A stretch of 23,155 nucleotides of DNA from a virus, in UHGV virus genome UHGV-0138245; one strand, given 5' to 3'. The translations under genes and the position numbers were made by a program. This document shows, one piece after another, positions 1 through 23,155 of the stretch. Numbering within the stretch: position 1 is the first letter of the stretch; each line of letters starts with the position of its first letter. The notes under the pieces were generated by a model. It searched no databases. It was not told the origin of the DNA and was given only the letters and a program-made list of their open reading frames with translations.

Positions 1-1055
1 AAACCAAGGTATGCGAGAAGGCCAGCTACATCCTTTCCACTCAAATTAGTCAGCGTATTGTCCAGCGGTTGTTTACCTGCCAGCGCATTAAGCATTGTCG
101 TGGCAAAGTTCGGATCATTCCCCAGTGCCGCCGCCAGTTCGTTCAGCGTATCCAGTGCCGCAGGTGCAGAACCCACCATTGCTGCAATTGCCGATTTCAC
201 AAAAGCGGTAGTGGCAATCTGTGTATTGTTGACCGACTGCGCCGCCGTGGGAGCTGTTGGCGTTCCGGTGAGTGCCGGACTCGATAGCGGCGCTTTCAGT
301 GCCAGCGCATTGTTAATGGTGGTACTGAATTTCGGATCATTGTTAATGGCTACGGCTATTTCTTTCAGCGTGTCCAGCGTGGCTGGCGCACCATTAATAA
401 GAGCCGTCAGTGCCGCCTGAACAAATGCGGTGGTCGCAACCTGCGTGGTATTATTCCCCGCCGCTGGCGTTGGCGCTTTGGGGGTTCCGGTAAACGTTGG
501 ACTTTCTTTGGGTGCATACTGTGAATGTGGGTCCGCTGCGGCAAGGTGTTTTGCCATTTGGTCATCCACATACACCTTCAGCTCCAGTGTCTTATCATCC
601 ACATACTTGCGAGTTGCCAGTACTACAGCAGGGTCGATTTTCAGGGTGATATTGTCCGTACTGCTGGTAATCAGCACCATGCGCACGGTCTGGGTGCGCC
701 CGCTGCCTTCAGCCAGTTGCGGCTTATAGCTTTCCGGGCAGTTGCCCACGGCAATCAATGCCCCGGACTCATCAAACAGGCCCACTTCACGTATCCACCA
801 ACCGCCCTCGTTTTCAGGGATCACCTGTTCAGCAATAATCTGGCTGCTGTTCTGCGGGTCGATGTACAGCATATTCAGCGCAGCCCGGCGTTTCTCATTT
901 ACTAATGCTGTCTGCTTTGCGTCCGGCGTTGGCAATGTTCCGCCGCCATCGCCTACCGCCATATGGATAATTTTTAAAGGCATACCGAGCGCGGCGGCGC
1001 TGGCAAGTTTCGCCGCGCCAATATCCGTCAGCAGGGTATAAAATTTTGTGCTCAT
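1..1055 (-). CDS. Tail fibre protein (P2 gpH-like), N-terminal part only; C-terminus beyond window start
   Basis: Reverse-strand translation from the ATG at 1055 reads MSTKFYTLLTDIGAAKLASAAALGMPLKIIHMAVGDGGG..., resembling the P2 gpH N-terminus. Start overlaps the gpI stop (ATGA). Not in the ORF track because no stop falls within the window. Confidence 0.8.
   Translation of the reverse strand, partial: MSTKFYTLLTDIGAAKLASAAALGMPLKIIHMAVGDGGGTLPTPDAKQTALVNEKRRAALNMLYIDPQNSSQIIAEQVIPENEGGWWIREVGLFDESGALIAVGNCPESYKPQLAEGSGRTQTVRMVLITSSTDNITLKIDPAVVLATRKYVDDKTLELKVYVDDQMAKHLAAADPHSQYAPKESPTFTGTPKAPTPAAGNNTTQVATTAFVQAALTALINGAPATLDTLKEIAVAINNDPKFSTTINNALALKAPLSSPALTGTPTAPTAAQSVNNTQIATTAFVKSAIAAMVGSAPAALDTLNELAAALGNDPNFATTMLNALAGKQPLDNTLTNLSGKDVAGLLAYLG
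60..510 (-). repeat. Tandem ~225-nt (~75-aa) repeats inside the tail fibre gene
   Basis: - strand translation repeats the block TTAFVxxA...AP(A)xLDTLxExAxAxxNDPxFxTTxxNALAxK twice; the same repeat is visible in the DNA. Coordinates approximate. Confidence 0.5.
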
Positions 1056-7446: not shown

Positions 7447-8505
7447 TTACGCTCCGGCTTCTGCTGCGGCGGCGCTGAAATCGCCAATCTGGATGTTTTC
7501 CACCAGCGCAGCGCAGCGGTAGTCCTCAACCACATAGGCTTCGTTAACAGATTCAAAGTTTTCAATCCGGTCACGTTTCGGGTTGTCGATAACTGAACGG
7601 CGGCGGGTGTCTTCCTGCCAGTAGATGGACAGGTTATCCAGACGGGTGATCAGCAGCGCATTCGGCGGGAAGAACGGCGCACGCACGGCCTGCAGACCGC
7701 CCATGCGTTTCTGACTGATAATCATATCGGCTGCCAGTTTTTCACTGTTTTCCTGCTCTTTGTTGACCAGCGGGAAATACTTGTCAGACAGCAGTTCACG
7801 ACCGCAAATCACCACCAGATCGTCATCATCCTGGTAGACCACGTCGATAAGCTCATTGACCGCATCCATCACTACAGCGTCCAGGTTGGCATATTCGCCA
7901 CCTTTCCCGACTTTCACCGCACCCGGTGTGGTTTCGCCGCCCGTGGTGGTGCTGCCCATGACGTGATCCGGTGCATCCTCACGGATTTTCTGCAGCCAGC
8001 CTTTGTTCACATCCTGCAGCAGCGGGTTTTCACTACGGTTGGAGGTTTTCGCACGCTTCACGCCGTTAAAGCCGATCATGATGCGGTCCAGTGCCTGACG
8101 TTTCACGATGGCGTCACGGATACGCACCTGGAAATCCTGAAACTTCGCCCACAGGTCCAGCTTCGCGTAGGTCAGCACCGTGTCAAAGTTGGTCTGCTCG
8201 CATTTATATTCCACATCGACCATCAGCGTCGGATCGACAGGTTCACGCTCTTTCGCGGTGGTGTCAGTGGTTCCGGCAATGGTGCTGCCAACACCCAGCC
8301 CCAGCAACTGACCGGACTGCTCAGTCACTGGCGTGACGTTAATCAGCGTCAGGAAGGCGGCGGACTGCTGGATCTGGTCTTCCAGCGTCTGCTGCACAGA
8401 CGGCTCCACAGTGAATTTGCTGGACAGTTCTTCAACTGCCACACCGTTCAGACGCGCCAGCTGCTGCAGGTAAGCGTTAAAAGCAAAGCGGGTATTCTTC
8501 TTCAT
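7447..8505 (-). CDS. Major capsid protein (P2 gpN-like)
   Basis: 352-aa ORF MKKNTRFAFNAYLQQLARLNGVAVEELSSKFTVEPSVQQTLEDQIQQS..., a pattern close to P2 gpN. Confidence 0.9.
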   Translation of the reverse strand: MKKNTRFAFNAYLQQLARLNGVAVEELSSKFTVEPSVQQTLEDQIQQSAAFLTLINVTPVTEQSGQLLGLGVGSTIAGTTDTTAKEREPVDPTLMVDVEYKCEQTNFDTVLTYAKLDLWAKFQDFQVRIRDAIVKRQALDRIMIGFNGVKRAKTSNRSENPLLQDVNKGWLQKIREDAPDHVMGSTTTGGETTPGAVKVGKGGEYANLDAVVMDAVNELIDVVYQDDDDLVVICGRELLSDKYFPLVNKEQENSEKLAADMIISQKRMGGLQAVRAPFFPPNALLITRLDNLSIYWQEDTRRRSVIDNPKRDRIENFESVNEAYVVEDYRCAALVENIQIGDFSAAAAEAGA

Positions 8506-19828: not shown

Positions 19829-20845
19829 ATGACCATCAGAAAACAGCCGAACGGAAAATGGTTGTGTGAGTGCTATCCCAATGGACGCAATGGTAAGCGC
19901 GTGCGTAAGCAATTTGCTACCAAAGGCGAAGCCATTGCATTTGAAAGCTTCACCATGGACGAAGTAAACAAAAAGCCATGGCTTGGTGAGAAGGAAGATC
20001 GGCGGCGATTATCAGAAGTGATTGAGCAGTGGTATTCCCTATATGGTCAAACACTCGCAGACCCCAAACGCCTGATGGCGAAACTTAGAATTATCTGTAA
20101 TGGTCTAGGCGATCCCATCGCCTCTGAGCTGACAGCAGGTGATTTCACAAAATATCGGGAAGCCAGATTAAAGGGGGAGGTCCAAAATGAAGACGGCTCG
20201 TTCATGTCACCCGTTAAACCTCGCACAGTTAATCTTGAGCAGCGTAACCTGTCATCGGTGTTCGGTACATTGAAAAAACTAGGGCACTGGTCCGCACCAA
20301 ACCCGCTGGCAGGGCTTCCAACCTTCAAAATTGCTGAAGGTGAATTGGCTTTTCTTTCCACGGACGAAATCAAACGCCTGCTTAATGCCTGCGCCGAATC
20401 TCAAAACACCAGCCTACTAATGATTGCAAAAATATGCCTGGCTACTGGTGCGCGATGGAGTGAAGCAGAAAACTTGCAGGGCCATCAGTTATCAAAATAC
20501 CGGATCACCTATACCAAGACAAAAGGTAAGAAAAATCGTACCGTGCCGATATCTCAAAATCTGTATGATGAACTCCCCAAGAACAGAGGGAAACTATTCA
20601 CACCGTGCAGAAAAGCCTTTGAACGAGCAGTAAAGCGAGCAGGCATCGAGCTACCAGAGGGCCAATGCACCCACGTGCTGCGTCATACATTCGCCAGTCA
20701 TTTTATGATGAATGGCGGGAATATTCTTGTCCTTAAAGAAATATTGGGCCATGCCGATATAAAAATGACGATGGTTTACGCACACTTTTCTCCAGACCAT
20801 CTAGAAGATGCTGTTACAAAAAATCCTTTACATAATTTGGTTTAA
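19829..20845 (+). CDS. int: Tyrosine integrase (P2/186 Int family)
   Basis: 338-aa ORF with the catalytic signature (ATGARWSE; HVLRHTFAS H-x-x-R; MVYAHF catalytic Tyr). Confidence 0.9.
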   Translation: MTIRKQPNGKWLCECYPNGRNGKRVRKQFATKGEAIAFESFTMDEVNKKPWLGEKEDRRRLSEVIEQWYSLYGQTLADPKRLMAKLRIICNGLGDPIASELTAGDFTKYREARLKGEVQNEDGSFMSPVKPRTVNLEQRNLSSVFGTLKKLGHWSAPNPLAGLPTFKIAEGELAFLSTDEIKRLLNACAESQNTSLLMIAKICLATGARWSEAENLQGHQLSKYRITYTKTKGKKNRTVPISQNLYDELPKNRGKLFTPCRKAFERAVKRAGIELPEGQCTHVLRHTFASHFMMNGGNILVLKEILGHADIKMTMVYAHFSPDHLEDAVTKNPLHNLV

Positions 20846-20849
20846 TAGA

Positions 20850-21908
20850 ATGAAAAAAAAGCTCACATTAATCATTACCTACGCAATCATTACTATCTTA
20901 ATTGCCTTAGCATTGATATACACTAATCGTCCAAGAGTTTTTATCTTCTTTAGTGTAGCTTATATACTTGGATTGATACTTATGTTCTATTGCTTCAATT
21001 GGCTTAAACTAAATGAGAAAAATCTATTAAAACAACCATTATTCATAGCATCTATTATCGTACCGTTAAAAATGTTTGTTTTGTATGGCCTCTGGGCTTG
21101 GAAAGGCCACAATTTAAATTTCACATCAGACGGTTTTAATCACTTTCTTGACATCTCTAAATTGCCATTATTTATTTTAGCTTCTTCGGTACCTCTTGCA
21201 GCAATCGTCAACAATATACATAGAACCACACAAACAGAGAACCAAATAGAAAAAACACAAAAGCAAATCAATCTTGTTATTGAAAAAAACACCACTGATT
21301 CATATTACTCACATCTGAAAAGCTTCGCTGATATATTCCAAACACTACCAACATTTAAATTATCAAGATTAAATAAAGAAACTAGTGATATAGACAGTAT
21401 TGAACTATCTGTAGTTCATCCGTACACTCTTTATAAAAATATTTTCAAATCATCTTCCATTGATAATGGCTATAGCACCGCTGTCGAAGAAGATTTTATT
21501 CGAAAAACAACAAATCATTATAACAACATAAACAAATCGCTTAAGTCCAACAACAAAAATCATGACAACCAATTAGTTAGCCTACAACTCATAGAATCAA
21601 ACATAATTCAACTTTGCAGACTACTTGGAATTGATTATAAATACCAAGAACATCTTTTCTCAATAATTCCTGAACATCCAAAACCAGATACGGAAGCCAT
21701 AAGCATCTCATTCAATGATGAAAAACAACTAAAGCAAATGCTTTGGGGACTAAGAAATATTCTCATTGAGTTATATGTTTTAATCGACAAGGACCCCTCT
21801 ATCTTCCAAACAGGTAAAAGCAATGGTGATTACATACCTGAGTACGCACTATATGACGAAAAACTCTTTACAAGCATTTTACCTATATCAAATGACCAGC
21901 GCATTTAA
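20850..21908 (+). CDS. AT-rich membrane protein of unknown function (cargo gene between int and att)
   Basis: Real start MKKKLTLIITY... 5 nt after the int stop; four predicted N-terminal transmembrane helices then a ~230-aa Lys/Asn-rich soluble domain; ~28% GC against ~45-55% for its neighbours. Confidence 0.7.
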   Translation: MKKKLTLIITYAIITILIALALIYTNRPRVFIFFSVAYILGLILMFYCFNWLKLNEKNLLKQPLFIASIIVPLKMFVLYGLWAWKGHNLNFTSDGFNHFLDISKLPLFILASSVPLAAIVNNIHRTTQTENQIEKTQKQINLVIEKNTTDSYYSHLKSFADIFQTLPTFKLSRLNKETSDIDSIELSVVHPYTLYKNIFKSSSIDNGYSTAVEEDFIRKTTNHYNNINKSLKSNNKNHDNQLVSLQLIESNIIQLCRLLGIDYKYQEHLFSIIPEHPKPDTEAISISFNDEKQLKQMLWGLRNILIELYVLIDKDPSIFQTGKSNGDYIPEYALYDEKLFTSILPISNDQRI

Positions 21909-22021
21909 TGGCGACAAAGTGGCGGCAGAGCATTAAAAACGCATAAAACATATAAACAGTAAATAACACTAAAGGACTGTTTTTAAACGTAATTCACTGT
22001 TTTTATTACAGTAAAAATAGT

Positions 22022-22066
22022 ATGTAGGAATTTCGGACGCGGGTTCAACTCCCGCCAGCTCCACCA
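22022..22066 (+). other. ssrA: att core: 3'-terminal 45 nt of ssrA (tmRNA), fragment only
   Basis: ATGTAGGAATTTCGGACGCGGGTTCAACTCCCGCCAGCTCCACCA matches the E. coli tmRNA 3' end (T-arm, acceptor, CCA) as I remember it; no 5' acceptor strand or tmRNA body upstream. Confidence 0.8.
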
Positions 22067-22112
22067 AAATTCTCCATCGGTGATTACCAGAGTCATCCGA
22101 TGAAGTCCTAAG

Positions 22113-22146
22113 AGCCCGCACGGCGCAAGCCCTGCGGGCTTTTTTG
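22113..22146 (+). terminator. Intrinsic terminator downstream of the ssrA 3' end
   Basis: 8-bp stem AGCCCGCA/TGCGGGCT followed by TTTTTT. Confidence 0.6.
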
Positions 22147-22269
22147 TGCCCTCAATTTGTCCCGCGAAGTCCGAAGAGAACTGATTAAATCCGAACCTTT
22201 TAGGCCCATTGATAGGCCCAACGAAAAGCTCTATTGTTTTCGTTGGGCCTAAACGCATGGAGACTCCCC

Positions 22270-23103
22270 ATGGCAAGAAAAACCAAGCCGTTAACCGATA
22301 CGGAAATCAAAGCCGCCAAACCTAAAGATGCCGATTACCAGCTGTATGATGGTGACGGGCTTACTCTGTTAATCAAGTCCAGCGGTAGTAAGCTCTGGCA
22401 GTTCCGTTACTATCGACCTCTGACCAAGCAGCGAACCAAGCAGAGCTTCGGAGCCTACCCAGCCGTCTCCCTTTCTGATGCGCGTAAACTCAGAGCTGAA
22501 TCTCGAGTTTTGTTGGCAAAAGATATTGATCCTCAGGAACACCAGAAAGAACAGGTGAGGAATTCTCAAGAGGCCAAAACCAACACCTTCTTGTTAGTTG
22601 CCGAGCGTTGGTGGAATGTGAAGAAAGCCAGCGTAACAGAGGACTATGCCGACGATATCTGGCGCTCGCTTGAGAGAGATGTTTTCCCAGCAATCGGTGA
22701 TATCAGCGTCACTGAGATTAAGGCTCATACTCTAGTTAAAGCTGTTCAGCCGGTACAGGCCAGAGGTGCATTAGAGACTGTTCGCCGCCTTTGTCAGCGT
22801 ATTAACGAAGTCATGATTTATGCGCAGAACACAGGCCTGATTGATGCAGTTCCCAGTGTAAATATCGGAAAAGCGTTCGAGAAACCGCAAAAGAAAAACA
22901 TGCCGAGTATCCGTCCGGATCAGCTTCCACAGTTAATGCAAACAATGCGTACAGCAAGTATCAGTATGTCAACGCGGTGCTTGTTCATGTGGCAGCTTCT
23001 CACCATTACCCGCCCTGCCGAAGCCGCTGAGGCACGATGGGATGAAATCGATTTCAGTGCTAAAGAATGGAAAATTCCAGCAGCTCGTATGAAGATGAAC
23101 TGA
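22270..23103 (+). CDS. intA: P4/CP4-57-type tyrosine integrase (IntA-like), C-terminally truncated; probable pseudogene
   Basis: MARKTKPLTDTEIKAAKPKDADYQLYDGDGLTLLIKSSGSKLWQFRYY... N-terminus about 200 bp after the ssrA end. The ORF stops after ...IPAARMKMN (278 aa), before the H-x-x-R and catalytic Tyr motifs. Confidence 0.75.
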   Translation: MARKTKPLTDTEIKAAKPKDADYQLYDGDGLTLLIKSSGSKLWQFRYYRPLTKQRTKQSFGAYPAVSLSDARKLRAESRVLLAKDIDPQEHQKEQVRNSQEAKTNTFLLVAERWWNVKKASVTEDYADDIWRSLERDVFPAIGDISVTEIKAHTLVKAVQPVQARGALETVRRLCQRINEVMIYAQNTGLIDAVPSVNIGKAFEKPQKKNMPSIRPDQLPQLMQTMRTASISMSTRCLFMWQLLTITRPAEAAEARWDEIDFSAKEWKIPAARMKMN

Positions 23104-23155
23104 ATCGCCACGGGTTTAACAGACACCTCAGAGTCATTTAAGATGGCTTAAAGAG

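Follow-up and report, generated by a model that had tools for sequence, protein, structure and literature searches.

An IS3-family insertion sequence very probably interrupts the ssrA-linked island integrase gene intA after codon 277

The right end of the window analysed here (the whole 23,155-bp stretch of the virus genome UHGV-0138245) joins the 5' part of an island integrase gene, intA, to the tip of an insertion sequence (IS). We consider it very probable that an IS3-family IS has interrupted this ssrA-linked gene after codon 277 (intA::IS) and removed its catalytic half. The window would then end in a tandem array of mobile elements at ssrA, the tmRNA gene of E. coli, with a P2/186-like prophage (positions 1-22021), a 47-nt copy of the ssrA 3' end, and intA of an older CP4-57-like island. 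A 1,229-bp IS3-family element would have inserted into this gene directly behind codon 277 (AAC, last base 23100) and ahead of codon 278. The intA reading frame would then close at a TGA formed by the IS tip, giving a 277-aa product with both DNA-binding domains, and excision and integration of the island to the right by its own integrase would presumably be abolished. An excision defect is to be expected because excision is known for CP4-57, the relative in E. coli K-12, where it follows AlpA overexpression and changes ssrA (PMC10107115). The preliminary description of the region had suggested that a deletion or insertion with its breakpoint near 23100 disrupted the integrase of the neighbouring island, and the left end of the IS lies precisely there, at 23100/23101.

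The truncated ORF (22270-23103, + strand) starts with ATG at 22270, ends with TGA at 23101-23103 and comprises 277 codons; a TTG-started version of 289 aa is merely the mechanical longest ORF. Codon 278 is indeed the stop, as had been described, while the last residue is N277 and not residue 278. The intA fragment proper (22270-23100, + strand) covers codons 1-277 of a P4/CP4-57-type tyrosine integrase of 391-413 aa. The three bases of the stop codon (23101-23103, + strand) are the first three bases of the IS, and intact intA has CGA (Arg278) at this place.

The ORF has the P4-family N-terminus and the box-I motif that had been described, and profile searches against Pfam delimit its domains. 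The arm-type DNA-binding domain Arm-DNA-bind_3 (PF13356, formerly DUF4102) spans residues 8-95 (E = 1.8e-24, profile positions 1-83 of 83), and the solved N-domains of CP4-like integrases 3ju0 and 3jtz were matched via the identical full-length intA allele. The core-binding domain Phage_int_M (PF22022) follows at residues 108-198 (E = 5.5e-24, profile positions 2-92 of 96). The catalytic domain Phage_integrase (PF00589) is represented by profile positions 3-64 of 172 only (residues 214-277), compared with positions 3-170 of 172 (residues 214-378) in a full-length homolog. We take the R-K-H-x-x-R-H-Y residues of intA to be those given by the standard tyrosine-recombinase signature. On this assignment the 277-aa product retains R248 (in TITRPAE) and K275 (in ARMKMN), with the first third of the catalytic domain. 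H337 and R340 (HGLR), H363 and the nucleophile Y373 (RRAY; positions in the full-length protein) lie beyond the break and are missing, in agreement with the earlier statement that H-x-x-R and the catalytic Tyr, here placed within residues 337-373, are lost. The ORF thus has the arm-binding and core-binding domains and the location at a t(m)RNA gene that characterise the IntA family, and lacks a complete R-K-H-x-x-R-H-Y catalytic domain. Judged by its sequence, the gene would be a fragment (pseudogene) of an IntA family member and not a functional member. As HxxR, the second His and the Tyr are absent, strand cleavage and exchange should be impossible for the 277-aa product, which is predicted to be unable to cleave and rejoin DNA.

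The point at which homology to intA ends is sharply defined. A megablast search of window 21950-23155 against 5,426 complete E. coli genomes returned intA next to ssrA, with identities of up to 99.9%, in hundreds of these genomes, and every good intA alignment ended at query positions 1151-1154, corresponding to window 23100-23103. The reference intA of E. coli MS 124-1 (L001; 1,176 nt, 391 aa) adjoins ssrA and has no mismatch to window 22270-23100 over all 831 bases; the first mismatch is at 23101, after which 37 of the 55 remaining bases differ. The alignment to full-length intA that had been suggested as a check therefore gives 831/831 identity and an abrupt loss at 23101. At 90% identity, the 277-aa product falls into a protein cluster of 2,168 members; most of the full-length proteins listed there have 413 aa, the usual length in the intA family.

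From the next base on, the window is IS sequence. Its last 55 nt (23101-23155, + strand) are the left inverted-repeat end of the 1,229-bp element, identical in 55/55 nt to the left end of a complete copy (L002, 2506-3734). The tip starts with TGAATCGCC and its TGA is the stop codon of the shortened intA. The transposase genes of the IS are co-oriented with intA, and the window ends inside the IS, before orfA. It had been noted that nothing integrase-like follows 23103, and the bases in question are the IS end. Nor can the catalytic domain sit in frame just past the window, because a complete copy of the IS is 1,229 bp long.

Could the junction be an artefact, i.e., an intact intA garbled by a sequencing error or frameshift, or an assembly that fused intA to an unrelated IS? 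The window does terminate in a repeat, where assemblies are least reliable, and one related contig (L004) turns chimeric after 141 nt of IS. However, the absence of any indel excludes a frameshift or sequencing error: 831 bases equal the intact allele, intA homology stops abruptly at 23100 and perfect homology to the IS tip begins at the next base, so that no correction of the reading frame would restore the gene. A chimera is opposed by the recurrence of the junction. Nine contigs that differ in sample and assembler (MEGAHIT k119, k127 and k141; SPAdes; Logan) show the identical intA::IS junction, each with 0-1 mismatches over the join, and its independent assembly with k-mers of up to 141 requires reads that span the junction. 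Furthermore, 31 contigs, all of them from ENA metagenome assemblies or Logan, encode exactly this 277-aa product. We regard an artefact as extremely improbable, and this alternative is close to refuted. The left junction of intA with the IS was not found in the 5,426 complete E. coli genomes and was also missing from the JGI metagenome contigs and the GTDB representative genomes.

The nine junction contigs reach 27-141 nt into the IS and, like the window, all break inside it. That the window stops after 55 nt of IS sequence is best read as a short-read assembly break at a multicopy repeat and not as the end of a gene or genome. The contig L004 (10976-11339), assembled by MEGAHIT at k141, tracks the IS for 141 nt, which equals its k-mer length, and continues into unrelated sequence with a minus-strand ORF; this join is probably a repeat-induced chimera in that metagenome assembly. 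At the other end, window 1-300 lies within the P2-like tail-fibre gene region; its alignment to L013 starts at about 12001, beside a tail-fibre segment associated with an invertase. Both window ends lie in or near repeat-prone sequence, and the 23,155 bp may thus be one whole short-read contig.

The assignment of the element to the IS3 family rests on its ends in the window and on complete copies elsewhere. The complete 1,229-bp IS is bounded by the terminal inverted repeats TGAATCGCCACGG...CCGTGGCGATTCA, and the window from 23101 reads TGAATCGCCACGG. These repeats are imperfect (38-nt arms, 74% complementary), start with 5'-TG and end with CA-3'. In complete copies orfA matches HTH_Tnp_1 (4e-20) and orfB matches rve (2e-33) and HTH_21. 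The RefSeq label for the IS genes is "IS3 family transposase, programmed frameshift", and the window match sits just upstream of the gene so labelled. Terminal repeats and an orfA/orfB pair with a programmed -1 frameshift, as expected for the IS3 family, are therefore both present, with orfA/orfB judged on complete copies outside the window. With IS3, IS911, IS2 and ISEc52 the element shares the TG...CA ends, the frameshifted orfA (HTH) and orfB (DDE, "rve"), the 3-bp duplication, a length of about 1.2 kb and its multicopy presence on chromosomes and plasmids. In contrast to these it has a generic NCBI name only, and just its first 55 nt lie in the window. Our literature search gave no ISfinder name for the 1,229-bp element, and in RefSeq and PLSDB it appears only as "IS3 family transposase".

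The IS is abundant. Matches to the final 61 bases of the window occur at 2,678 places in 2,083 of the 5,426 complete E. coli genomes (up to 16 per genome), and about one third of these places are on plasmids. In PLSDB the IS is present in 2,740 plasmids from a broad set of Enterobacterales. The exact left tip is shared by ten copies that lie at different loci and have differing flanks. Simple insertions with a 3-bp target duplication were found twice, with GAA in L020 and with ACC in L025, where the IS splits ehaB. A target duplication is absent in four of the six complete copies inspected (L002, L003, L021 and L022), hence later rearrangement is common for this IS. Several copies abut truncated genes. 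A preference for AAC or GAAC targets, or a correspondingly longer left end of the IS, was considered and dropped: the flank in L025 reads ...CACC and the flanks vary among the ten copies. The copies considered first, all preceded by AAC or GAAC, came from a ranking by BLAST coverage in which the query included the flank, and such a ranking selects similar flanks. In L018, L019 and L023, copies of the IS are themselves broken by IS30 about 320 nt from the left end; judging by the similar matches listed, one IS30-interrupted site among these, next to shiA, seems to be common to many E. coli genomes.

Upstream of intA the window preserves the boundary between ssrA and the island. A 47-nt copy of the ssrA 3' end, ATGTAGGAATTTCGGACGCGGGTTCAACTCCCGCCAGCTCCACCAAA (22022-22068, + strand), is identical to the ssrA 3' end in L001 and lies 201 nt upstream of the intA start codon. 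The leader between this copy and intA, which is the left end of the island (22069-22269, + strand), equals the ssrA-intA spacer of L001 base for base; a consensus scan places in it a putative terminator-like hairpin with a T-run (22127-22150) and a putative promoter-like site (22209-22237). ARAGORN and Rfam found no complete tmRNA gene in the window. To the left, the P2/186-like prophage (1-22021) encodes an apparently intact integrase of 338 aa (19829-20845), and window 1-22067 matches E. coli P2-family prophages with 94-97% identity. In E. coli APEC-O117H42 the order smpB - ssrA - P2/186-like prophage - intA - island is intact, and the prophage is flanked on both sides by the 47-nt direct repeat of the ssrA 3' end; many other E. 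coli genomes have intA beside the full ssrA. The 47-nt copy is thus the right attachment site of the left prophage and marks the original ssrA/island boundary before intA. The disrupted integrase belongs to the island that extends rightward, outside the window, and the left prophage has its own integrase.

The intA::IS junction is found behind three upstream neighbours: the prophage of the window, another P2-like prophage (L004) and a P4-like satellite (L007). In L005, L006 and L008-L012 the sequence upstream of the junction is nearly identical to the prophage of the window, and the prophage in L004 diverges upstream of 22010. We infer that the IS entered intA before some of the traffic at ssrA took place, and that loss of the resident island's integrase left the attachment site usable. 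The satellite in L007 (with Psu, Delta, AlpA, Ash and primase) lies directly upstream of the same truncated intA, and its attachment site (7490-7520) is a shorter, diverged ssrA-like sequence, TTCAAACTCCGCCAGCCCACCA, compared with TTCAACTCCCGCCAGCTCCACCA in the window.

Persistence of the identical allele behind three different upstream elements might also be taken to mean that the 277-aa protein is maintained as a functional short form, e.g., as a protein that binds arm and core sites and regulates or blocks recombination at the shared ssrA attachment sites. Both DNA-binding domains are intact and the native promoter region is unchanged, which would suit such a role. However, the end of the ORF is set by the IS tip and not by a conserved stop, and the allele is rare (31 contigs, 0 of 5,426 complete E. 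coli genomes). Moreover, related intA genes in public data carry frameshifts, indels, other insertions and, beside ISEc52, a changed 3' end, and decay of this kind is the usual pattern of pseudogenisation. A functional short form is in our view highly improbable. We give just as little credence to the idea that shortened IntA, expressed from the unchanged promoter, acts as a DNA-binding decoy on the shared ssrA attachment sites; if it did, it would stabilise the tandem array or modulate integration and excision of the upstream P2-like and P4-like elements.

Accepting an IS-disrupted integrase, we turn to the fate of the 3' half of the gene. Intact intA reads CGAGACCATACGG from nt 832 onward. 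The 3-bp duplications seen elsewhere predict a duplicated AAC here, and the right junction of a simple insertion would be expected to read ...CCGTGGCGATTCA-AAC-CGAGACCATACGGTTCC. A junction between the right IS end and intA starting at nt 832, with 0-8 nt in between, had no exact match in the JGI metagenome contigs and the GTDB representative genomes. The displaced 3' half was also sought with the C-terminal 109 aa. The fragment proteins followed up (P0048, P0052, P0140 and P0141) lead to contigs that do not carry this IS; these C-terminal pieces of intA in public assemblies arose by other lesions or lie at contig starts. Of the two things that the earlier description proposed to look for past the window, an IS already begins inside it, and the 3' half was not found in these searches.

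We lean slightly towards a simple insertion in which the 3' half still follows the IS. A subsequent deletion beside the inserted IS, or recombination of IS copies with one another, with loss of the intA 3' half and possibly of part of the island, appears possible and rather less likely; it is a variant of the IS-insertion explanation and does not contradict it. Such a course would be in line with the missing target duplications in four of the six complete copies, with the truncated genes that several copies abut, and with a right-junction contig that was found neither in the JGI metagenomes and GTDB representatives nor among contigs with C-terminal intA fragments. However, the absence of the right junction is uninformative on insertion versus deletion because the left junction is missing from the searched collections too, and the copies in L020 and L025 are simple insertions of this very IS with duplications.

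Among the closest known counterparts is IntA (SlpA) of CP4-57 at ssrA of E. coli K-12, together with its 413-aa homologs in Enterobacteriaceae, which occupy the same site about 200 bp downstream of the ssrA 3' end. The three-domain architecture is alike up to residue 277. In contrast to CP4-57, the gene in the window is cut by the IS after codon 277, without HxxR, the second His and the catalytic Tyr, and is parted from a functional ssrA by a P2-like prophage. A comparable lesion is on record in the paper on the E. coli W genome, where a footnote to a table gives the P4-type integrase of KpLE2, located at leuX in E. coli Crooks, as interrupted by IS3 (PMC3032704). There, too, an IS3-family element has split a P4-family island integrase that lies beside a t(m)RNA gene, while the locus (leuX vs. 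ssrA), the integrase and the IS (IS3 itself vs. an unnamed 1,229-bp relative) are different. IS-disrupted island integrases are already well known, and intA::IS is a textbook kind of event.

Hence, the finding matters chiefly for annotation and makes no open question testable. The intA gene should be labelled an IS-disrupted integrase pseudogene and the contig end a repeat-induced assembly break, and the island to the right of ssrA is to be treated as probably immobile on its own. The locus illustrates a known pattern in which islands at t(m)RNA genes decay by integrase loss and newly arriving prophages and satellites can still use the attachment site.

Other alleles of intA carry lesions of their own. 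The homologs in L015 and L017 are divided by a frameshift into ORFs of 293 aa and 120 aa, the one in L027 has an indel around nt 816-842, and the one in L028 is preceded by unrelated sequence upstream of nt 855. Integrase decay at the ssrA/intA locus thus looks frequent. The reference intA of E. coli MS 124-1 (L001, 3249-4424) is itself 391 aa long rather than 413 aa, and its likeness to other alleles ends at nt 1160; an ISEc52 transposase gene begins 57 nt past its stop. Its C-terminal tail seems to have been swapped by another IS-associated event, with the catalytic Tyr kept.

Between the prophage integrase and the right attachment site, the window contains an AT-rich ORF of 366 aa (20808-21908, + strand) with predicted hydrophobic N-terminal segments and with no match in Pfam or PADLOC. 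Just upstream of the attachment-site copy, the sequence leftward from about 22010 differs in L004, and related prophages have AIPR, SEFIR and TIR proteins annotated at some place within them. The region of the 366-aa ORF may be a variable slot for cargo or defence genes.
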